Shown: positions 34,804 to 48,303 of the stretch, piece by piece
Position numbering within the stretch: the stretch's first letter is position 1
Layout of the letters: each line of letters opens with the position of its first letter
From: Alphaproteobacteria bacterium
GTDB taxonomy: Bacteria > Pseudomonadota > Alphaproteobacteria > MPNO01
NCBI GenBank assembly: GCA_964291675.2
Contig: OZ219865.1
Location: 224,001-288,000 of the forward strand
DNA length: 64,000 bases
Direction: 5' to 3'
Translations under genes and position numbers: made by a program
The notes under the pieces: generated by a model
Told to the model about the DNA's origin: nothing
Database searches by the model: none
Seen by the model: only the letters and a program-made list of their open reading frames with translations

Positions 34804-35136
34804 TCAGACGATCGCGGTGCCGACCAGGCCGGTGACGATGCCGGTGCCGGCGCCCGCGGCGATGCCGACACCCACCGCGCCCATCAGCTGCATCGGGTTG
34901 AAGCGCAGCACCGAGCCCACCAGGGCGGCGCCGACGGCGAGCGCCGCGGCGAGCTGGCCGCCGGTGCCGCCGACGATCCCCTCCACCGTGCCGAGCGGCC
35001 CGCCGAAGGTGGTGTCGGTGGTCGCCAGCGCCATGTCCGGCCCCGCCAGCAGCGCCGCCAGGGCGATCCCCGCGGCCGCCGCGGTCCGGAGCGTTGCCAT
35101 GCCCGGAGCCGCCGCCCGGCCGGCCCCTGGTCTCAT
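34804..35136 (-). CDS. traA: conjugative pilin
   Basis: Signal peptide ending ALA plus two Gly/Ala-rich hydrophobic helices; directly upstream of traL. Confidence 0.8.
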   Translation of the reverse strand: MRPGAGRAAAPGMATLRTAAAAGIALAALLAGPDMALATTDTTFGGPLGTVEGIVGGTGGQLAAALAVGAALVGSVLRFNPMQLMGAVGVGIAAGAGTGIVTGLVGTAIV

Positions 35137-35357
35137 CGGTCGTCCCCCTCGATCGCGCTGCCGTCGTCCGAGGTCGACTTGCGCCGCCGCGTCCTCACCC
35201 AGGCGTCGAGGTCCTCCATCAGATAGCGGACCCGGCCGCCGAACTTCAGGAACACCGGCCCGTCGCCCGACACCCGGTAGCGGTCCAGCGTGCGCGTCGA
35301 CAGGCCGAGATGCGCGGCCGCCTCGCGCGTGTTGAGATAGGCGCTCTTCCCGGTCAT
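35133..35357 (-). CDS. HTH_17/AlpA-type excisionase-like protein (RdfS-like)
   Basis: YLNTREAAAHLGLSTRTLDRYRVSGDGPVFLKFGGRVRY...DLDAW; overlaps the traA start. Confidence 0.9.
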   Translation of the reverse strand: MTGKSAYLNTREAAAHLGLSTRTLDRYRVSGDGPVFLKFGGRVRYLMEDLDAWVRTRRRKSTSDDGSAIEGDDR

Positions 35358-35475
35358 TCCCTTCTCCTCCTGCTCTTGCCTGCCCCGGCCGGCGAGCCGG
35401 GGTGCGCCGCGTCCGGACGGACCCGGTCCCATGCGAGGGCCAAGCGAAGCGGAGAAGGGCGGTTCCGGGGAAGGT

Positions 35476-35537
35476 CGTTTTCGGCGGGGGAAAACGGTCC
35501 ACAGTCTCGACGCCAACCGACGCCAACCGACGCCACG
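35476..35537. promoter_or_regulatory. candidate regulatory sites upstream of the rdfS-tra operon
   Basis: Inverted repeat CGTTTTC-N7-GAAAACG (35476-35496) and three tandem 10-mers CGACGCCAAC/CGACGCCAAC/CGACGCCACG (35508-35537). Confidence 0.55.
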
Positions 35538-35757: not shown

Positions 35758-36542
35758 CTACGGGCCGGACGCGTCTCCGGCGCCGCGGGCCATCTCCCGG
35801 TACCGCATCGCGACCGCCCTGGCGTTCCTCAGCCGGCGCCCGATCCGCGAGTGCATCCAGCCGCCGACGTAATACTCATTCCCGGCCCGGTCCGGGCCCC
35901 AGATCGCCGCGGCGATCTCCGCGTACGTCCGGCCCTCCGCGCTCCCTTCCAGGGCGGCCAGCAACTCGCGATCCCCGTCCCCCGTACCCGCCCCGGCGGA
36001 GGGGCCGGGACGCCGGACCAAACATCCTCGATCCTGACGACCGCGCGCACCAGCTCCAGCCCGCCGTCCTCCGGGAACGCCGCGCCGCCGGGAAGGCGGA
36101 CCTGGACCGCCGCACCGGGCCGCTCGATCTTCAGCACCAGCGCGCCGTCCGCCAGCCGCAACCCCTCGATCGAGGCGCCGCCCGCCTCCGCCAGCGCGGC
36201 CAGCGGCGCCGCATCCCGCACCGCCCTGCCGTCCGCCATCGGACCCCGCGCCCAGAAGGGGGAGACGATACCGTTCTCTGCCCGGGGGTCTTCCCAGGCC
36301 AGCAGGCCCCAGTCGCGGGCGGCGAGGTCCGCCGCCGTCTGGAGCCTGACCGGAAAGGGTGCCGCCTCCGGCAGGCCGGGGGGCGGAAGGCGGCGCAGCC
36401 ACGCCCCGCGATAGCCCCAACTCGCCCGGATGAAGCTCCAGGCGCGGACCGGGTCCCAGACGGCCGGCAACCCGCGGCGCCGTCCGCCGCGGGCCGGGCC
36501 GGACCCGGCCGGCGGATCCCCGTCCGAGTCCTCCGGGGTCAC
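35758..36542 (-). pseudogene. FseA-like transcriptional activator (DUF6499 + DUF2285) split by a frameshift near 35980
   Basis: One frame has AWSFIRASWGY and DWGLLAWEDP. The -1 frame has LLAALEG...TYAEIAAAIWG...W....RRL...YR. One extra G in the G5 run (35979-35983) would fuse them. Confidence 0.75.
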
Positions 36543-39500: not shown

Positions 39501-41826
39501 GTCTGTCAAAGCGACTGTTACTGGACCGCAACGTGCGAAACACGGCGTTCGTCGGATTCGACAGTTCCAGGTAGAGTTCCTCCGTGCCCTCGTACCCACT
39601 GTCATCCGTCGTCGACACGTTTACCGTCTTCTCGGTTTGGTGCGCCGCGAACGTCAGAGTTCCCGACGTCGCGACGTAGTCGACCCCGCTTGTCGCCGTA
39701 CCGCAGTTGTTACCGCTGAGGCATCGGATTCCTCGCGCTTGGTATTGGACCGTCACCGTCTGCTCAGTTGGGGCTGACAGGCGCACGGTAAACGTGACGG
39801 GTTTGCCTTCAACGGCGTCCGTTGATGCCTTCACCGCCACATACGGCGAGCCGTCGACATCGGTGTCGGCGTCAGTGATCGTGCCCGTCGCCGTCGCGTC
39901 GCCCAGCGTCGCGCGTATCGGGTTCGACAACGTCACCGTGAACGTTTTGTTCCCCTCATCCGAACGGTCGCGCCGCGTCGTCGGCACGTGCAGATACTTG
40001 AGTCTGTCACCCGGCTGAAATACCAGCGCACCAGCCCTGGGGGTAAAGTCCGCCCCACTCTGTGCGGTGCCGCTCGATGTCGTGTATTGGACCGAAACCT
40101 GCCGGTCGCTACGCTTCGACAGCGACACACGAAAGATCATCAAACCACCCGCGTCGACATTCGAATCCAGCTCCTGCCAGAATCCGACTGTCGGCAAGTC
40201 ACTCGGCGAAGGCGCCGGAGCTGTCCCGTCGTCGTCGTCAATGATGGTTCCCGTCCCCGTCGCGTCGCCCAGCGTCGCGTTTCTCGGGTTCGACAACCTC
40301 ATGGTAAATGTCTCATCCTCCTCGTCGATGTCGTCATCCGCTGTGACTACGCGCAAAGTGTACGAGGGGGGCCTCTGCTCAGTGCCGCCGCCGAAGGCCA
40401 ACTGCGTCGCCTCCGGTCTCTCGAAGTCGGAGAACGTCGCCGTGTCACCGGGTCCCACCTCCGGATTGAAATCAACGTATACCGTCCGGCCAGTGGGCGC
40501 CGACAGGGAAATTGTGAATTCGACCTTACCTCCCTCGGTCGCGCTCCCATCGGAAATGCTCACCGTCGGCGGAGGGTCGTCGTCGACGATTTTGCCTGTT
40601 CTCCTCAAATAGCCCCCCGACGAGTTTAGTCGCGCATTCGTCGGGTTCGACAGGCGCAGATAGAATAGCTCGTTCCATTCGTACGCCGAGTCGCTCGTTG
40701 TCGATACACGCACCGTCTTTCTTGTTTCGCCTGGGGCGAAACTCAGCGTTCCGGACGCCGCAGTGAAGTCTTTTCCGCTCTGCGCATTGCTTCTTACCCT
40801 GTCCGCGCCACTCTCGGTTGCGTATTGAACTGTCACCGGTCGATCGCTCGTTGCCGACAGAAATACCTCAAACGCAATCTCGTCTCCCTCCGCCACGTTG
40901 TTGCCGATCGCGTCCACCCTAGGGGTCTGAGCTGCCACCGCGTCGCTGTTGTTGGTGATCCGGCCCGTTGCTGTCGCGCTCCCGAGCGTCGGATGTGTCG
41001 AGCTCGACAATGTCAACGTGAACGTCTCGTCTCCCTCCTGCACGGTGTCGTGGGTCGTCGGTACGCGCACGACCTGCGAGTGCTCATGTGTGCGTTCCCC
41101 TCCATGCCAGAACACCAACGTGCCTGACGTCGCGAGGAAGTCCGTCCCGCTCGCGGCCGTCCCGCTCGAAGTCGCGTACTCGACCCTCACCGGTTGCCAC
41201 ACCGGTTGCGGGAACTGCCCTGATAGCGTGACGACGAAGTTCACTGCCTGGCCCTCCCGAGCCTCGGCGGGCGATACGCTCACCGTTAGCGGCGTGGCGG
41301 TGGTCCCCGAGTCCGCAACCGCCAGGGTAGGTGCAATCAGGAACGTTGCTGCGAGCAGCAACCCCGCGAGCCAAACAGGCCGTGGAATGAACATGCCGTT
41401 CGCTCCGCCGGTGCAGAAGAGTCGCAGCAGGCTGCACAGCGCGGATTGGCCGTGCTTCCGTCGCAGGGGGGACCGCGAACGAGCCTTTCGAGGATAGAAG
41501 AAGTCCGGTAGTGCAGGAGGCGACGACCGGCGGAACGGGCATAACGCGCCGAGCAGCAGTCCCAGGGCGGGGAGAAGGGAGAGACGGGCGCACCAGCGCC
41601 CGGGGCGTGGCTCAGGGCCGCACGGGGCGCCTGTCGAGGAAGCCGGCATTCGCGCGCCGGGCGGGCGCCGGACGCATGTCATGCCGCTGGGCCGCCGGGC
41701 AATTATACGCACGCGAGTCACGAGCTCGGCGAACAAGTCGGAGCCGCAGGTCGGCGCCTCCTTGGCAGGCAGTCCCGAACCCCTTCCCGAAGCGGTGGAC
41801 GACTTGCTTTCCAACACTCGCAACAT
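36595..41826 (-). CDS. large autotransporter adhesin with about 8 Calx-beta-like repeats
   Basis: Repeated DF/Y..SGTLTF and ETF.L.LSNP units; C-terminal beta-barrel ending GVMLRSSIRW. AGGAGGAG RBS sits 6 nt before ATG 41826; alternative start at 41394. Confidence 0.9.
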   Translation of the reverse strand: MLRVLESKSSTASGRGSGLPAKEAPTCGSDLFAELVTRVRIIARRPSGMTCVRRPPGARMPASSTGAPCGPEPRPGRWCARLSLLPALGLLLGALCPFRRSSPPALPDFFYPRKARSRSPLRRKHGQSALCSLLRLFCTGGANGMFIPRPVWLAGLLLAATFLIAPTLAVADSGTTATPLTVSVSPAEAREGQAVNFVVTLSGQFPQPVWQPVRVEYATSSGTAASGTDFLATSGTLVFWHGGERTHEHSQVVRVPTTHDTVQEGDETFTLTLSSSTHPTLGSATATGRITNNSDAVAAQTPRVDAIGNNVAEGDEIAFEVFLSATSDRPVTVQYATESGADRVRSNAQSGKDFTAASGTLSFAPGETRKTVRVSTTSDSAYEWNELFYLRLSNPTNARLNSSGGYLRRTGKIVDDDPPPTVSISDGSATEGGKVEFTISLSAPTGRTVYVDFNPEVGPGDTATFSDFERPEATQLAFGGGTEQRPPSYTLRVVTADDDIDEEDETFTMRLSNPRNATLGDATGTGTIIDDDDGTAPAPSPSDLPTVGFWQELDSNVDAGGLMIFRVSLSKRSDRQVSVQYTTSSGTAQSGADFTPRAGALVFQPGDRLKYLHVPTTRRDRSDEGNKTFTVTLSNPIRATLGDATATGTITDADTDVDGSPYVAVKASTDAVEGKPVTFTVRLSAPTEQTVTVQYQARGIRCLSGNNCGTATSGVDYVATSGTLTFAAHQTEKTVNVSTTDDSGYEGTEELYLELSNPTNAVFRTLRSSNSRFDRHVTARILDNDDPPVASFASQASSAQEESGTHNVTINLSAAPTYPIDVYVSNVSSGVGSGTATYGADYRLGSGSVSVPSGATTATIPVTIVDDDVDDSGETIVLKLTTNSAGYTVGESSTHTVTIQEQVTPDTPEVSISAGAGVTEGGSATFTLTASPAPAAALTVDVTVTESGGYATAGTRQVTVPTGGTATFTVATVDDGADEPDGSVTATVTAGSGYTVSSSQGAATVAVTDNDDPAPPPLTASFERMPSQHDGKAAFSFLVRFSTALGADGVAPTVASFGASKAKVKRVQRVEPGLWRVRVKPASWRDVTVTLAGGRGCGETGAVCASGGQVLSNAASATVGGPAQIQLKGGTAREGRDATLDFAVTLNRAASAAVSVDYTTADGTAKAGADYTAASGTLTFAPGETAKSVSVAILDDAIDEGKETFLLKLSNPQGAFLRNMHRKAKGVIRNEDPLQAMWLSRFGRTVASDAVAALTARFETPRAAGSHLTMLGERVNLSQAGDGSQAGAKVLAGVLTGLAQAFGAPNAAQDDPGTGFEAGDPFARPGTSGMWNEPATTAGGRRVTERELLMGTSFRAVLPAGAGSQFTSWGQGASVSQFSAGAQGLGLTGEAATGSMGFDYERGRLLTGFAMMHSVGEGTARDGEWRYAMGSTVTTMLPYARLKLTERVSAWGMAGTGTGRMTLDLDGGVAQRYRTDLTMTLAATGVRGDLVTPAEAGGFALALKADAFWVRTESDRVSAPGVGNLAAAQGEASRMRAMLDGSRTFALAGGATLSPSVELGVRQDGGDAETGTGMEFGAGLGYADPTRGLDMALRVHGLAMHAEQGYEEWGVSGQVRLVPGGAGRGLSASLTPSYGVDPGGSQRLWALPESSRLTANGETDPSSRLDAEMGYGMVLFGDRFTGTPHVGFGLSDTAREYRLGWRLTSAVRGDPGFEVNLDATRREAANADEPAEHGVMLRSSIRW

Positions 41827-41840
41827 CGCTGGCTCCTCCT

Positions 41841-41876
41841 GATTACGCGCGATAACTGTCGCTATCGCGCGTAATC
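41841..41876. repeat. loxP-like recombination site A (14-8-14)
   Basis: GATTACGCGCGATA-ACTGTCGC-TATCGCGCGTAATC: perfect inverted arms around an asymmetric spacer. Confidence 0.88.
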
Positions 41877-41912
41877 CGCCGGCTCGTGATTGGACGATCC
41901 GGAGGCCCGCGT

Positions 41913-42896
41913 ATGTATCTCGAACCCCCGTTCGACCCCTGCGAGGGGCCGGGTACGGAACGACAGGCAGTGCTCGCCGAGCAGCTCGGACAGTTCGTCC
42001 GGGCGGCGAGCGGCGCGTTCTCCAGCAACACCGAGCGGGCGCTGAAGTCCGATCTCGCCATCTACGCCGAGTGGTGCGCCGAGCAGGGGGAACGGGCGCT
42101 GCCGGCCATACCCGAGACCGTCGCCGCCTTCGTCGACGCCATGGCGGAGGTGAAGGCGCCGGCCACGGTGCGCCGCTACGTCACCAGCCTGGTCATCGCC
42201 CACAGGGCGCTCGGGCTGGAGAAGACGATCAAGAGCCCGCCCGTGCAGCTGGCGCTCAAGCGCATGCACCGCAGGAAGGGCCGCCGCCAGGACCAGGCGA
42301 CGGGGCTGACATGGCCGCTGCGCCAGCGCCTGCTGGAAGCGGCGGGCGACCGGCTGATCGACGACCGCAACCGGGCGCTGCTCGCCGTCGCCTACGACGC
42401 GATGTTGCGCCGGACCGAGCTGGTGTCCCTGCAAGTCGCTGATCTGCTTGAGGAAGTGCAGGGCGACGGCAGCCTGCTGGTGCGCCGCTCAAAGACCGAC
42501 GGCGAGGGCAGGGGCGAGATCGCCTGGGTCGGCCCGGACACCGTCCGGCTGGTCTGCGCGTGGCTCCACCGGGCCGGGATCGGGGACGGCCGGCTGTTCC
42601 GCTCGGTCGGCAAGAGCGGGCGCATCGGCGAGCGGCTCCATCCCTGCCAGGTGCCGCGCATCTTCAAGGCGATGGCGCGCGCGGCCGGCCTGCCGGAGGC
42701 GGTGGCCGGGGGCCTCTCGGGGCACTCGGCCCGGGTCGGCGCCGCCCAGGACATGGTCGCCGCCGGGATCGAGCTGCCGGCGATCCTCCACGCCGGGCGG
42801 TGGAAGTCCACCGCGATGGTCAACCGCTACGGCGAACGGCTGCTGGCACGGCGCAGCGGGGCGGCGCAGCTGGCCCGGATGCAGAAGCGGGCTTGA
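41913..42896 (+). CDS. Cre-like tyrosine recombinase
   Basis: SSNTERA, RNRALL...YDAMLRRTEL, RRSKTD, SGHSARVGAAQDM, GRWKS and VNRY give a complete catalytic set of the Cre type. Confidence 0.93.
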   Translation: MYLEPPFDPCEGPGTERQAVLAEQLGQFVRAASGAFSSNTERALKSDLAIYAEWCAEQGERALPAIPETVAAFVDAMAEVKAPATVRRYVTSLVIAHRALGLEKTIKSPPVQLALKRMHRRKGRRQDQATGLTWPLRQRLLEAAGDRLIDDRNRALLAVAYDAMLRRTELVSLQVADLLEEVQGDGSLLVRRSKTDGEGRGEIAWVGPDTVRLVCAWLHRAGIGDGRLFRSVGKSGRIGERLHPCQVPRIFKAMARAAGLPEAVAGGLSGHSARVGAAQDMVAAGIELPAILHAGRWKSTAMVNRYGERLLARRSGAAQLARMQKRA

Positions 42897-43015
42897 GCGC
42901 GCCGGAGGGGGTGTATGGATATGGCCGTCGGGTTATGATGCCATATCCGTTGCGGTGCGATGCGGAGGCCCGGAACCGGCCTGCGCGCCGATCGGGCGCC
43001 AAATTCAGAAAATGC

Positions 43016-43029
43016 TATCGAGCGTAATA
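43016..43029. repeat. isolated recombinase half-site
   Basis: TATCGAGCGTAATA is the exact reverse complement of the left arm of site B. Confidence 0.7.
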
Positions 43030-43185
43030 ATTGGCGCGGTCGGCGGACCCGGCATCCGGCCGGCAGCCCCGCACGGTACCGGCCGATCCCGGAAAAGTCA
43101 CAGTAGTTCAACGGGTTGTCAGAGGTTCGACGCGCGATTCCGTACCCTGTCGCGGGTGCGGCGCGCCGCCGGCGCGAATATGGTA

Positions 43186-43214
43186 TTGACAATATTACGC
43201 TCGATAGCGACAGC
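43186..43214 (+). promoter_or_regulatory. candidate sigma70 promoter overlapping site B
   Basis: TTGACA at 43186-43191, a 17-nt spacer, then GACAGC, which would become GACAGT after inversion. Confidence 0.5.
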
Positions 43215-43228
43215 TATCGCGCGTAATC
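43193..43228. repeat. loxP-like recombination site B, inverted relative to site A
   Basis: TATTACGCTCGATA-GCGACAGC-TATCGCGCGTAATC; the spacer matches the reverse complement of the site A spacer (GCGACAGT) at 7 of 8 bases. Confidence 0.88.
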
Positions 43229-43900
43229 TGGAACCGGAGCGACCGGCTCCGCGCTGCCCGGACAGCCGCGCAAGAGATTGATATTACGCGCATTTTTGAT
43301 GCCGCAGGGGCCTTCCCGCCCCCGGGGATCGGTTCCGCAGCCCGATATCCCTGATATCGTGCACCTGGGACGTTCATCGCCCGGTTCCCCGCGTCTCGAC
43401 AGGGGCGCATCCTCGAAGGATGCGATGCGGAATCAGGTGGGCACGCGGTCCCCCGGCGGCCATTTGCATTTTCCAATGGCGCCGATCGGCGACGCTTATC
43501 GGCGACCGCGGCCGCGAAGGAGACCGGACCCCGCCTTCTCCCTTCTACGCCTGTCCTCATTAGCGAACCGGGACCCGCAGTGATAATGCCGGTCGCCGGA
43601 ACATTCATGCGCCGGCGGCATGCCCCGAAGCCGGCGTGGATCGGCGAGCGCCATCGCCGGACGAGGACGATGGCGCCGGCATGTCGAGGGTCGTTCGCCG
43701 ATCGGGAGGCGAGACCCCGCGGCGCGTCCCGCCGGGGCTCTCCCGCATGGCTGTTCAACGTCCCGAGTTCCCGCACTGCGCACCCCCGAAGCCGCGCCCG
43801 CGCCGTCGACGCGAGACCGGACTGTATGGCGCCGCCGGCGATTGCGCGTCCCCAAGCTGGGGGAAATCGGGAGAAATCATGTTGCCTACCGGCGAATTGC

Positions 43901-44100
43901 ATGAAGACGAATGCCTTCAGTGCCGCGACGCCGTGGATGCAGGCCGTCGTCGCACCCGCCCTCCTCGAGGTCGAGCTCAGGCTTTGCACCGCGGACTGGC
44001 GCGAGAGCGTCCGCCTGCTCGCCGACGGCCGCAGCGATCTCCATTGCCGCGGCGTCGACACCGGCGAGGCCCTTCCGGCCCACCTCTCTTCCTCGAAGCG
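43901..44100 (+). pseudogene. LysR substrate-binding domain remnant
   Basis: PWMQAVVAPAL..VELRL....ESVRLLADGRSDLHC.GVD with apparent internal deletions and no HTH. Confidence 0.4.
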
Positions 44101-44659
44101 ACCGGGCCCGTCAAGGATCACGCCGCTCGGCCCAACTCCGGGGCGCGTCAGACCGCGGGACCCGCAGTGGCGGGGTCAGTGGGTTTGGCGCAATTCGCTA
44201 TCGGCCGGATACCGCTCCACCGCTTTGCTGCCCGTGGCGGCCCGGCCATCATCTCCGCGCGCTGAAATGGCGTTCCAGCGCCATACGCCGCCCGCCCCGG
44301 TCCCAGTGTTGAAAATTTCTGGATTCGATTTGATGACCGCGCTCCGCGTTCATCCCTCCGGCGCCCGAGCCACCAAGGCAATCCGCAAACCATCGAGACA
44401 CCCAAAGATTCGGGAAAACCGTCAGCCCGCTGCGATCCGCCGCGAGACGGCACACGACAACCGCCCCGGCTTTGCGGCCGGGACACAAGGTGAGGGCCGA
44501 TCCGGGCGTCTTGGCAGGCCGTCGCCAGGCATGGAAGAGGGTACCTCGGAGAGGTTTACGGTGGCCAAGCGGGCATGCCGAACGGGCATCGGCGGTCTAC
44601 CGACACTGGTGCGGTGGTCTACTGGCTCGGCGGCGTCAGGGCGCCTGACCCTCGAAGAC

Positions 44660-44860
44660 GGCATCTACGGGCGGACACTCGAAGTGCGCAACGCCATCGT
44701 GTCGGTGATGTCGGCGGCGGACGACTGCTCGCAGGTGACCAATGCGCATCTGGCAGCGGTCTCCGGGACGCTGGTGGTCAGCCACCTGACCTCGATCCGG
44801 GCCGGGGACTTCGCCGGACACTCGGGGAATACCGAGTTGACGCTGGGCGCAATCCCGGGT
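44660..44860 (+). pseudogene. remnant of a leucine-rich-repeat surface protein N-cap
   Basis: GIYGRTLEVRNAIV...DDCSQVTNAHLAAVSGTL...LTSIRAGDFAG resembles bacterial LRR caps; no start or continuation seen. Confidence 0.45.
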
Positions 44861-45183
44861 GGCGTTCTTGCTCAGCACCGGGTAAGAAAAAGAATACACT
44901 GGACGCCTTACCGGGAACTAGGCAACAGATCATCCTCTCCTCCCTACGAACCACTGGCCCCAGGCGCTACGTCCGCCAACCTTGGCGGTTTCCAGCCGCC
45001 TCAAACTTGCTTTCTCAACGTTACCGGTCGCTGGAACCACGAATTATGGCTTCAGGCATTGTGAAACTCTTGGGGCGCCTCTTCTGAGACTGTTGGGGGT
45101 CCCCCGATTCGAGGACCACGACCGTGACGTAGAAACAAAACCATCACCGGTTGGACATCCCTAAACAAATCGGACCATCCGTA

Positions 45184-45768
45184 ATGACAAACTCATCACC
45201 CAGACCGTCTCGGAACTCCAGCAATATTATTTCCTTTCTTGCCGCCATGATAGCGATTATTTTCGCCATTGTTGGTGCAGTCACCGGTTTTCTTGTAAAA
45301 GAGCAAGAATCTTCTCAAGTATTGACTATCGAAGAGTTCCAGGACCTGAGGTCAGCTATTGATGGCAATGAGAAAGGAATTCGTGCACTTGAAGAACAGT
45401 TCCGTGCAGCCATAGAGGCCTCACAGATACAGGAAGGTGAACCCAACATTTCCGTACTATCAAATGATGTGTCGCGACTCAGGGATAGAATGAAAAAGAT
45501 TGAAAGTTGGGTCGTCTTGGAACCTGAGCAAGCTGTTGCCATACCATTGCTGAAGAAAGAGATAGAAGAGATGAAGAGTTCCATGAATAGTCATCTCAAT
45601 AATACTAGCCGTGAAATTGATCGCATCTATACCATTGGCCAATGGTTTATCGGAACTCTCATAGCGGTGATAGTCGCATTAGTTGCTCCATTCATCGGCA
45701 ATTTAATAACATCAAGAAAACAACGAGCAGAGGAACCGAGAAATCAGACCCACCCCGACTCAAATTGA
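45184..45768 (+). CDS. low-GC membrane protein (TM, coiled coil, TM)
   Basis: Hydrophobic IISFLAAMIAIIFAIVGAV and WFIGTLIAVIVALVAPFI segments flank a heptad-like region. Confidence 0.75.
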   Translation: MTNSSPRPSRNSSNIISFLAAMIAIIFAIVGAVTGFLVKEQESSQVLTIEEFQDLRSAIDGNEKGIRALEEQFRAAIEASQIQEGEPNISVLSNDVSRLRDRMKKIESWVVLEPEQAVAIPLLKKEIEEMKSSMNSHLNNTSREIDRIYTIGQWFIGTLIAVIVALVAPFIGNLITSRKQRAEEPRNQTHPDSN

Positions 45769-46087
45769 ATAAAAAACATCAATCGTAAGAAGAAATGTCG
45801 TCTTCGTCGGATGTTGGGTCAACAGGTCCGAGACAATCCCAGGGTCGTTCTTCTAGCGACTGTATCTATTTGGCAATCGCCCGGTGATGTTACTTTTAGC
45901 GACTTCACTTTGAGAATACCTTACCCTCTGTTCGACTTGAAGCAGTAGATTGCTCCACGAATGAACTTAGTCCTCAACTCCTACTCGTCGCCAATACCAT
46001 CACAATCATCGTGATTATCCGGAGCTCGGCAACCATGTAGTCCTTATGGTGAGTGCCACGTGCATCACTCTTACCGTCGGAATCTGG

Positions 46088-46761
46088 GGTTGTGTCCCAG
46101 CGCGCGGTGTAGGAGTTCTGACGGCGATTGGTAGCTGTGGGTAAGTAGCCCGCCGCAGCGACCGGCGACGAGTCTGGCGGCGGCGGGCTACTTACCCATA
46201 GCGGAGGCCATCGCGGTACCGGTTTAGGGTTGGGGTGCACGTCCGCCCGACCAAAGGAGTACCACGATGCCGGCGGCCAGGGCCGGCGCGTCGTCTCCGC
46301 CTTCGTCGCCACCGCCTTCGCCCAGAACGACGCCGGAGCGGCGAGCGCCCAGTGGCGCCTGGTCGCCGACCAGCTCAGGACCAAGGCGCCCAGGCTCGCA
46401 GCCCTCATGGACGACGCCGAGCACGACGTCTTCGCCTACATGACCTTCCCCAAGGAGCACCGCAGCAAGCTCCACTCGACCAACCCGATCGAGCGGCTGC
46501 AAGCCGAGGTCAAGCGCCGCACCAATGTCGTCGGCATCTTCCCCAACGAGGATGCCATCACCCGACCGGTCGGCGCCATCCTGCTCGAGCAGAACGACGA
46601 ATGGGCCGTCTCGAGGAGATACATGACACTGGAACCGATCGCGCCCGTGAGCGACAATCTCACCGTCAAGCTGCCCACCGTGGCAGCCTGAGCGCCCCGG
46701 CTCCACCCGCCGGATACCGCGATCGACGCCTGGCTCTTACACCACGGGGCGGGACACGATC
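46088..46761 (+). mobile_element. internally deleted IS256-family element
   Basis: Imperfect terminal IRs (GGTTGTGTCCC..GGTGTAGGAG / CTCTTACACC..GGGACACGATC); 8-bp duplication GAATCTGG at 46080-46087 and 46762-46769; transposase C-terminus with STNPIERL and VVGIFPN. Confidence 0.9.
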
Positions 46762-46989
46762 GAATCTGGCCACCGTGCCAACAGTTAGCTGCTGAACCGT
46801 TGAGTTTAACATTGTTGCGATGTAAGACCGTATGTCCTTGTGAGGCCAGCATTTGATGGGGCGGTTCGCCCTACACTGGCGGCATTGAACGAGGGTTGCT
46901 CTGCGAGCAGTGCCCCAAGCCAGGAGGACGAACCGTGGTGGGGTGTAGCGAACTATTTGTCGGCATGGACGCGTCGAAGGATCCCATGC

Positions 46990-47087
46990 CGTGACGGCTA
47001 TCCCAACAGCTGCATCGACGGGCTCATGCCCTGGAACTTCAAACCCTCGTCAAGCTAAGAGCCGGGTGGCTTGGCCGCAACGCTTAC
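46990..47087 (+). mobile_element. IS66 right-end remnant
   Basis: GYPNSCIDGLMPWNF resembles the TnpC C-terminus and is followed by the CGCTTAC terminal sequence. Confidence 0.65.
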
Positions 47088-47298
47088 CATCCAATTGGCG
47101 TTTGCCAATTAGATGCGCGTCAACTCGAATCACCGAGGAATATTTCCGTGAAGTTAGAAGAGACTCTGTTGACGGAATATAGGTCAGGAAAAATGAAGAG
47201 GCCTTTTTTCATTGGTTGTATACGGTGCCCACAGCCATTTTACCAGATGAAACACTGAAATCACGTGTATATTGTCGACACCCTGTCTACATTTGCGG

Positions 47299-48303
47299 TC
47301 AATGACAATAAACGCTGTCACCTAAACAGACCGGCCTTTCTCCTATCACTCTTGCCACTCTGCACGCGTATTTCTCGGCTACAGCGTGTCTGTGACTAAA
47401 CTCGGCACCCCTTTCCTTCAGCCGTTCCAACATATCGACTCTGATTCTTCCGAAGACGGATTGGTGATATCCTGTGGACAGTAAACTATCATGAAATGAC
47501 CGCTCTATCTCACCAAGCTCCTCTTTGACAAATTCCCGATTCTCTTTTCTCACCGCCGAGACGACATCACAAGCCTTCCTCAACTCGCTCTGCAGTATGT
47601 TGAACCCTCTTCCTAATCCTTTTTTCTTAGGTTCAACGTACGACCCTCCTGCGCCGCATGCTCTTGCACTTATCGTAGGCAGGTAACGAAATCGTGGGAC
47701 CGCAACAACAGTTACGAACTCGCTTACGTTGTTGATGATTATCAGAGGAGGTAGACGACGACCCCTGTCATAGAGGGGCTTCAATTGCGTCGGCTTCTTG
47801 TCACCATTGTATGTTGGCAACACTCCATAAAGTTCTGCTAAACCTTTACCAACTTCCGAGTGGGTTTTAAGGACCTGCGCCACGCTTTGGCACAACCGCC
47901 CAGTTCTTTCCTCTGCACTCGCCACAACTTCTCCGGTCAACGCGAGTTCCCACATAGACTTGTGAAATTCATCGAATTGGAATATCTTTTCTGCCCAAAA
48001 TCTTTCGAACTCGTCCCAATACGCTTTATCTCTCGTCTGTCGAAGACGGCTAGGTAGCTCTTGCACTATTTCGTTGTAGACCTTGGTATACTGGTGTTCA
48101 TCCTCTATAAGCCTTTCCGCCTTTTCCGCAAAAATCTCCTGCTTTTGTCTCTTTAGCAATACAGGGTCGACAATGAATTGCCATATACCAATTGCCGTTC
48201 CTACAACTCCAAGCCCAGGGGCGATGAGCTTCCACGGGATCCGCCTAAAGGACCCCAATTTAGCGCCCATTCCTTGCTCTCGTCGTTGCTTTGTATTCGT
48301 CAT
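47299..48303 (-). CDS. low-GC hypothetical protein with N-terminal TM
   Basis: 334-codon ORF in AT-richer DNA; LIAPGLGVVGTAIGIWQFIV membrane segment. Confidence 0.75.
   Translation of the reverse strand: MTNTKQRREQGMGAKLGSFRRIPWKLIAPGLGVVGTAIGIWQFIVDPVLLKRQKQEIFAEKAERLIEDEHQYTKVYNEIVQELPSRLRQTRDKAYWDEFERFWAEKIFQFDEFHKSMWELALTGEVVASAEERTGRLCQSVAQVLKTHSEVGKGLAELYGVLPTYNGDKKPTQLKPLYDRGRRLPPLIIINNVSEFVTVVAVPRFRYLPTISARACGAGGSYVEPKKKGLGRGFNILQSELRKACDVVSAVRKENREFVKEELGEIERSFHDSLLSTGYHQSVFGRIRVDMLERLKERGAEFSHRHAVAEKYACRVARVIGERPVCLGDSVYCH

Follow-up and report, generated by a model that had tools for sequence, protein, structure and literature searches.

What does an intact Cre-like recombinase gene do between two inverted lox-like sites at the very start of a giant surface protein gene? 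The locus that raises this question lies in a 64,000-nt stretch of OZ219865.1 (positions 224,001-288,000, forward strand; assembly GCA_964291675.2 of an Alphaproteobacteria bacterium, with a genome of 4.8 Mb in two contigs), hereafter referred to as the window. We propose that the segment is probably a self-inverting promoter cassette of the Cre/lox type, which switches the adjoining gene for a putative autotransporter adhesin. In this mechanism, the recombinase would bind two inverted 13-8-13 sites, designated A and B, and exchange strands within the 6-bp core of the spacer, and this exchange would flip a 1.35-kb segment that includes the recombinase's own gene. The segment would carry a promoter directed outward at its B end, with the -35 box TTGACA inside the cassette and the -10 box in the spacer of the site. 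In the assembled orientation, the promoter would face a decayed right flank, and in the flipped orientation it would face the adhesin open reading frame (ORF), whose Shine-Dalgarno (SD) sequence and ATG lie 15 nt past site A. The comparison below shows the anatomy of the cassette, its conservation and covariation, and inversion at the spacer in relatives, and we infer the promoter activity, the ON orientation, the switching at this locus and any effects beyond the adhesin.

A Cre-like recombinase gene between two inverted lox-like sites

Both sites consist of 13-nt arms around an 8-nt spacer (Table 1). The arms of site A are perfectly complementary, and site B has the same arms with one mismatch in its left arm. 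A pattern search for this type of site returned exactly two matches in the window, against 0.00 expected from 100 shuffles. The spacers, ACTGTCGC in A and GCGACAGC in B, are reverse complementary at seven of eight positions, and because these include all of the central six, the sites are inverted relative to each other. The inverted repeat reaches 39 nt at 92% identity (41837-41875 vs 43194-43232). Direct reading and the pattern search thus bore out the original prediction of two inverted lox-like sites around an intact Cre-like gene, with spacers that are reverse complementary over the central 6 bp. The arms, which had been given as 14 bp, measure 13 nt, and a 14th pair fits at site A only.

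When the arm motif was searched against the whole genome (4.8 Mb), five half-sites were found, all at this locus, together with one match elsewhere that carried one mismatch. One of the five is an additional half-site inside the cassette, listed in Table 1 as the third recombinase half-site, which was absent from the original prediction. A reading of the gene as the integrase of an integrative and conjugative element (ICE), with A and B as attachment sites, was ruled out because the arms are confined to this locus and the sites are inverted and only 1.35 kb apart.

A phmmer search of the recombinase against PDB matched Cre at E 5.5e-25 (query 39-321 vs chain 32-330). Residues R166/R167, K194, H271, R274, W297 and Y306 align with the catalytic residues of Cre, given in PMC10250229 as R173, K201, H289, R292, W315 and Y324, and they are invariant in five homologues. 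The start codon is ATG 41913, which is preceded by a conserved GGAGG, and not GTG 41886. The same paper uses a 13-8-13 target within 1 kb of the gene as its rule, and such a target is present here within about 1 kb: site A begins 71 nt before the ATG (37 nt from the site end to the ATG), and site B begins 298 nt past the stop codon. Judged by full-length similarity, catalytic residues and the nearby target, the window recombinase is a Cre-type tyrosine site-specific recombinase. That this protein may recombine A with B has comparative support from the inversion junctions in the spacers of its relatives, described below.

Paired sites covary across a family of cassettes

In reference genomes, 360 stretches that encode relatives of the recombinase were found. 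The best 79 loci were used and, together with the window, made up 80 loci (numbered with L). All 79 come from metagenome-assembled genomes, which by title belong to Alpha- and Gammaproteobacteria, Chloroflexi, Vicinamibacterales, Longimicrobiales and others. One site upstream and one site downstream of the gene were found in 59 of the 80 loci, in several phyla. Among the 21 loci that lack a pair are short contigs and cases with degenerate arms; the partner site of L044 is located 1610 bp after the stop, and a Mutator-family transposase gene was called on that side.

The central 6 bp of the paired spacers were exact reverse complements in all 59 loci and direct repeats in none, and 15 distinct cores were present. 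When partners were randomly re-paired as a control, the number of loci with matching cores averaged 9.2 and never exceeded 18. All eight spacer positions, including 1 and 8, matched in only 30 of the 59, which fits a 6-bp crossover region. Covariation this perfect, over 15 core types, calls for continued selection for compatibility between A and B.

A metagenome scan gave 467 relatives, from which 80 loci were kept, and the site pair was present in nine of these. A tree was built from 152 recombinases, after 8 of the 160 rows had been removed because of stops or their length. The 67 rows with paired sites were all placed in one clade of 98 rows, with a Shimodaira-Hasegawa-like approximate likelihood ratio test (SH-aLRT) value of 100%. 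Phyla are interleaved within this clade, a pattern that suggests horizontal transfer or, for some of the loci, errors in binning. No pair was identified by the same criteria in any of the 54 rows of the sister clade, and in a dozen of them, for which the full ±5-kb locus was searched, only one upstream site, with a very variable spacer, was found and no partner. The sister-clade recombinases of metagenome contigs (L124-L161) are about 55% identical to that of the window; they have one lox-like site about 100-125 nt upstream, the spacer differs in almost every copy, and a partner was not found within 5 kb. Among cultured relatives, the best plasmid matches were below 50% identity, and the two records that were inspected out of 1135, a small sample, contained no paired lox-like sites.

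The window genome has a second such cassette on its other contig (G000:C2:3628824-3629801; L011, L014), with a recombinase 62% identical to the first. Its arms are different, its spacers are ACTATTGT and ACAATAGT, the hexamer TTGGCG lies 2 nt inside its B site, and the cassette adjoins the start of a gene for a large secreted protein. The idea that spacers are unique within a genome (orthogonality) was considered and not upheld: in an assembly with seven copies, one core occurs in three copies and another in two.

Cassettes of relatives invert at the spacer

Three sets of homologous loci hold the cassette in opposite orientations, and in the two sets that were read at base level, the switch point lies inside the spacer. 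L038 and L043 lie on different contigs of the same assembly. The identity between their cassettes is 96.7%, and both flanks are swapped and reversed. At base level, the two loci share the same flank and outer arm up to the spacer, after which one continues into the 5' end of the recombinase gene and the other into the 3' end of the cassette. Within a site, the two arms are not identical, and the outer arms could therefore be seen to stay with the flanks and the inner arms with the cassette, which is characteristic of site-specific inversion and not of insertion in two orientations. The same switch in the spacer was found between L065 and both L071 and L073, which share a subtilase flank; here, the first spacer base keeps to the flank-side arm. 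In the third set, compared at the level of gene order, the giant gene of cluster c1 (described below) and a LuxR/MalT-type gene lie on swapped sides in L060 and L063 versus L067, L076 and L078. The original prediction had proposed a search for flipped cassettes in homologous elements, and these three sets supplied them. Taken together, the comparisons show that the cassettes of relatives invert at the spacer.

The cassettes of the L038/L043 sub-lineage are longer, at about 1.9 kb (L038 2692-4646, L043 5883-7837). Two A-type sites follow each other in tandem at a distance of 47 nt, and a small additional ORF, encoded on the other strand, precedes site B. It is the outer A site that is exchanged with B.

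In length the segment is comparable to an insertion sequence, its ends are inverted repeats of 39 nt, seven copies are present in one genome assembly, and the family spans several phyla that are mixed within recombinase clades. These features could also belong to a small selfish mobile element, namely a tyrosine-recombinase insertion element that transposes and lies beside adhesins by chance. We consider this highly improbable. The unrelated flanks expected of an insertion sequence were not observed; both flanks are homologous between copies, so larger segments, and not the cassette alone, appear to have been duplicated or transferred. The exchange point inside the spacer, with the outer arms left on the flanks, is a mark of inversion, and inverted identical cores would give inversion and not excision. 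Furthermore, direct reading of the cassette ends revealed no direct repeats and hence no target-site duplication.

Alternatively, the sites might be static, as operators for autoregulation or as resolution sites, and inversion might be an occasional evolutionary accident without regulatory use. Such a role would agree with the extra half-site within a promoter-like element, with the single orientation of all near relatives, and with the sister clade and P1 Cre, which work with a single site. However, perfect covariation of the core over 15 types would be needless for operators or single resolution sites, and both orientations occur in three flank families. We regard static sites as improbable, and a segment that inverts remains our preferred explanation.

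A putative promoter points out of the B end

In 47 of the 59 paired loci, a hexamer with at least five of six matches to TTGACA is located about 2 nt (1-3) from the inner arm of site B, on the cassette side, and in 31 of the loci the match is perfect. At the A end, a hexamer with at least five of six matches to TTGACA was found in none of the 59. The -10-like hexamer, 17 nt further on, falls at spacer positions 3-8 and has A at its position 2 in 58 of the 59 loci, and many loci read TACAGT, TACAAT or TATAGT. T at position 6 is present in 32 of 59 as assembled and would be present in 52 of 59 if the cassettes were flipped. The hexamer differs between the two states in 22 loci, and in 21 of these the T is gained when it faces the A-side flank. 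As covariation and the L065 set suggest that spacer positions 1 and 8 are left with the arms, the last base of the hexamer would be supplied by the flank. These results suggest an outward promoter that flips between two flanks, with its -10 hexamer in the crossover spacer.

The conserved outward -35 box at the B end and the start codon beside site A fit a switch for the leftward adhesin gene. In the window, the ATG of this gene lies 15 nt beyond site A, and in loci of several phyla an SD sequence and start codon are located 15-47 nt from the site. The original prediction that the segment flips together with its own recombinase gene and toggles the leftward genes is supported as regards its sequence features, all of which are present, and as regards relatives, which invert at the spacer; for the toggling itself we keep the conditional.

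The leftward gene encodes a giant surface protein

The adhesin ORF contains Calx-beta domains in seven stretches, as identified with Pfam. On the A side, 25 of the 59 paired loci have a cluster c1 gene directed away from the cassette, and four have one for another protein of at least 800 aa. The members of cluster c1 have in common a conserved domain of about 450 aa at the C-terminus, by which the cluster is defined, and that of the window is conserved in 13 relatives. When 14 of these C-terminal domains were aligned, PF03797 (Autotransporter beta-domain) was matched in four (best E 2.5e-13) and OMP_b-brl in six. The window's own C-terminal 450 aa had no match in Pfam or PDB. The label of autotransporter, which the original prediction had given to this gene, thus comes from homologous domains and not from the window copy, and the leftward gene may be called an autotransporter adhesin through its homologues only.

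Adhesin residues 54-98 are homologous to the leader of the family. Among paralogues, the leader is conserved, with 144 synonymous versus 267 non-synonymous codon differences, and it appears to evolve like coding sequence. Residues 1-171 (41395-41826) seem to contain two signal peptides. For residues 54-98, the match is to the leader and signal peptide that related autotransporters have, and the second signal peptide, at about residues 145-171, stands ahead of the Calx-beta part. This ORF has the appearance of an old leader to which a replaced passenger was joined in frame.

Orientation bias and the polarity of the switch

Several observations weigh against a switch of the adhesin gene. All promoter calls are consensus-only, and the -10-like hexamer of the window is weak: GACAGC has two of six consensus matches, and three of six if flipped. 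For the recombinase gene itself, no promoter was recognised. The genes in the flanks were called with a simple heuristic based on guanine-cytosine content at third codon positions (GC3). The original prediction had placed the ribosome-binding site and ATG of the adhesin gene against site A, with no room for a promoter outside the cassette. The SD sequence and ATG do abut the site, but the second signal peptide at about residue 145 leaves about 430 bp in which an independent adhesin promoter could lie, and this weakens the latter part of the claim. The window and its nearest relatives (G011/L017, L096 and G008/L040) share one orientation. Of the 59 paired loci, 25 have the giant c1 gene on the A side and one has it on the B side, and switching would thus be rare or strongly biased. 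In a read survey consisting of one run with a 0.73 share of sampled words and three runs with small shares, all in the form of contigs, many diverged relatives piled up on the recombinase gene, and no listed contig spans the cassette. No strand-change joint was present among the 15 joints listed (a further 45 exist); these are contigs only and thus uninformative on inversion here. In the RNA-library run X4, coverage falls on the recombinase gene of relatives, which does not show transcription.

The same orientation bias could be explained if the cassette inverts with the reverse polarity, or with a B-side gene as its main output, and the assembled, dominant orientation is the productive one. 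The promoter would then drive a regulator of the LysR, LuxR or histidine kinase-response regulator (HK-RR) type that in turn acts on the adhesin gene; otherwise, transcription of the adhesin gene would start from an A-end promoter that was not recognised. A bias of 25 to 1 fits a favoured functional state, and the dominant orientation aims the -35 box at the B side, where a regulator gene (LysR, LuxR, LuxR/MalT or hybrid kinase-regulator) reads away from the cassette in 9 of the 59 loci. However, a -35-like hexamer with at least five of six matches is lacking at the A end in all 59 loci, the -10-like hexamer gains its T when facing the A-side flank in all but one of the loci that differ, and the B-side regulator of the window is a decayed remnant. 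We therefore judge this alternative unlikely, and a promoter that turns on the adhesin gene when flipped toward site A remains the probable explanation.

Other features of the cassette and neighbouring genes

The positions of all features are collected in Table 1. Within the 3' non-coding part of the cassette, a promoter-like site, a hairpin and a conserved block follow the recombinase gene; a search of 41000-47500 against Rfam gave nothing above threshold and one sub-threshold match.

Table 1. Features of the cassette and its flanks, in window coordinates
Feature	Position	Strand	Remarks
HTH_17 (excisionase-type) DNA-binding protein	35133..35516	-	Pfam E 1.2e-10; ahead of F-type transfer genes
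237-aa protein (cluster c4), possible FseA/RovC-like regulator	35829..36542	-	downstream of adhesin; 52-bp gap
Giant surface protein, 1743 aa	36595..41826	-	leader, Calx-beta repeats, conserved autotransporter-type C-terminal domain; Pfam and homologues
SD sequence of adhesin ORF, AGGAGGAG	41833..41840	-	adjoins site A; ATG 41826
Site A, lox-like 13-8-13	41842..41875		outer arm 41842-41854, spacer 41855-41862, inner arm 41863-41875; no strand; homologous position in 59/80 loci
Recombinase ribosome-binding site GGAGG	41901..41905	+	invariant in 4-sequence alignment
Cre-like tyrosine recombinase gene, 327 aa, intact	41913..42896	+	PDB Cre match, Pfam Phage_integrase, strong GC3 signal
Hairpin just past recombinase stop	42917..42948	+	fold -32.5 kcal/mol, z -2.2; relatives keep a stem there with other sequence
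Promoter-like site TTCAGA-N16-AATAAT, reading towards site B	43004..43031	+	1 found vs 0.3 expected; block conserved in 22 aligned sequences
Third recombinase half-site	43014..43029		perfect 16-nt inverted repeat with site B inner arm; between hexamers of promoter-like site 43004-43031; no strand
Conserved 12-nt block TTCAACGGGTTG	43107..43118	+	alignment of relatives
TTGACA, -35-like hexamer pointing out of cassette	43186..43191	+	2 nt inside site B
Site B, lox-like 13-8-13, inverted relative to A	43194..43227		inner arm 43194-43206, spacer 43207-43214, outer arm 43215-43227; no strand
-10-like hexamer GACAGC, spacer positions 3-8	43209..43214	+	17 nt after TTGACA; would read GACAGT if inverted
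Decayed LysR-type regulator remnant, B side	43460..44250	+	frame-2 similarity to LysR-like genes of L036 and L072; weak coding signal; no Pfam match

On the B side, conservation across many related loci was seen for patches of region 43230-44550, which show no clear reading frame. An AT-rich island follows at 45000-46000, with a GC content of 0.38-0.52 compared to about 0.7 nearby and a 205-aa ORF (45151-45768) that has only weak matches to domains of unknown function (DUF). A fragment of a Mutator-family (IS256-like) transposase is located at 46230-46691, and intact copies lie beside or inside the cassettes of L023, L033, L044 and L046. Many alphaproteobacterial relatives, including L020 (3148-3181), L024, L031 and L045, have a conserved 13-8-13 palindrome of unrelated sequence about 200 bp outside site B, and this palindrome is absent from the window. 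In the gammaproteobacterial loci L060 (10210-11334), L078 (1735-2859), L063, L067, L076 and L086, a further tyrosine recombinase gene, which belongs to the same broad family, comes after the gene for a LuxR/MalT-like regulator of about 930 aa.

To the left of the adhesin gene lie, in order, the 237-aa protein, the HTH_17 protein and the F-type transfer genes with a TrwC relaxase. The transfer genes form a complete-looking F-type conjugation set (11981-34871; TraE, TrbI, TraC, TraU, TraF, TraH, TraG and a TrwC-type relaxase) on the 1.15-Mb contig. FseA is made up of the domains PF20109 and PF10074. The 237-aa protein had no Pfam match even at E up to 1, so that neither of these domains was recognised in it, and among its 120 listed homologues, two have PF10074 or PF20109, one domain each. 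The name FseA-like used in the original prediction is thus weakly backed, through these two homologues and not through the protein itself. In the 52-bp gap after the adhesin stop, a consensus terminator or promoter was not found. The 237-aa gene follows c1 in only five loci (the window, L017, L024, L026 and L033), and the constant partner of the cassette across the family is the autotransporter gene and not the conjugation genes. It is pure conjecture that the switch might jointly gate the FseA-like activator and the conjugation genes.

A broader proposal, which we put forward tentatively and consider rather doubtful, is that these cassettes are horizontally spreading, self-flipping promoters of the Cre/lox type. 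Their spacer would double as the -10 box and the flank would set the last base of this box, so that promoter strength would depend on the flank faced. In the window, such a cassette would turn the adhesin ON, and read-through into the FseA-like gene, which begins after a gap of 52 bp, would license conjugative transfer in a subpopulation.

Implications

The family occurs in metagenome-assembled genomes of at least four phyla beside giant surface proteins, which points to phase-variable adhesion in uncultured, apparently host-associated bacteria. The window element raises the idea that expression of the adhesin, and perhaps transfer functions, may be bistable. The family could also provide natural pairs of recombinases and sites for genome engineering, with several arm classes, 15 spacer cores and a compatibility within pairs that is documented by covariation.

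Comparison with known systems

Invertible promoters and Cre-type recombinases are both well known. In the papers searched, we found no natural switch of the Cre/lox type with its own recombinase gene and a promoter built into the lox-like site, although the candidate lists of PMC10250229 could hold members of this clade. Cre/loxP of P1, Vika, Dre and the other Cre-type recombinases of PMC10250229 are comparable to the present system in full-length similarity to Cre, catalytic residues and a 13-8-13 target within 1 kb. They are also alike in the 6-bp crossover core, which is implied here by covariation. P1 Cre and the sister clade have one site, whereas here two inverted sites flank the gene and its own segment would be inverted. 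For the -35 box beside site B, we know of no counterpart in P1.

In Streptococcus pneumoniae, the PsrA/CreX hsdS system (PMC7096588) resembles ours in that a tyrosine recombinase makes programmed inversions between inverted repeats near its gene. That system differs in shuffling coding segments of a gene for restriction specificity, and it is not known to have lox-like palindromes or a promoter flip. The invertible element fimS, with FimB and FimE, and other invertible adhesin promoters are closer in outcome, since tyrosine recombinases there flip a promoter beside an adhesin gene. In the case of fimS, the recombinase genes lie outside an element of about 300 bp with short inverted repeats, whereas the present cassette contains its gene and full lox-like palindromes. 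FimE shows a strong orientation bias.

The Flp/FRT system of the yeast 2-micron plasmid has its tyrosine recombinase gene between two inverted targets of the 13-8-13 type, and the enzyme inverts its own segment, which serves copy-number amplification. Our cassette shares this arrangement; the yeast system is eukaryotic, resides on a plasmid and serves amplification, whereas promoter switching is proposed here. The Hin/hix H-segment of Salmonella has a recombinase gene inside an invertible segment together with an outward promoter for a surface-protein gene, which is driven in one orientation, and the cassette described here would work alike. Hin, however, belongs to the serine recombinases and depends on Fis and an enhancer, whereas the present enzyme is a Cre-type tyrosine recombinase and the -10 box of the putative promoter would lie within the crossover site.

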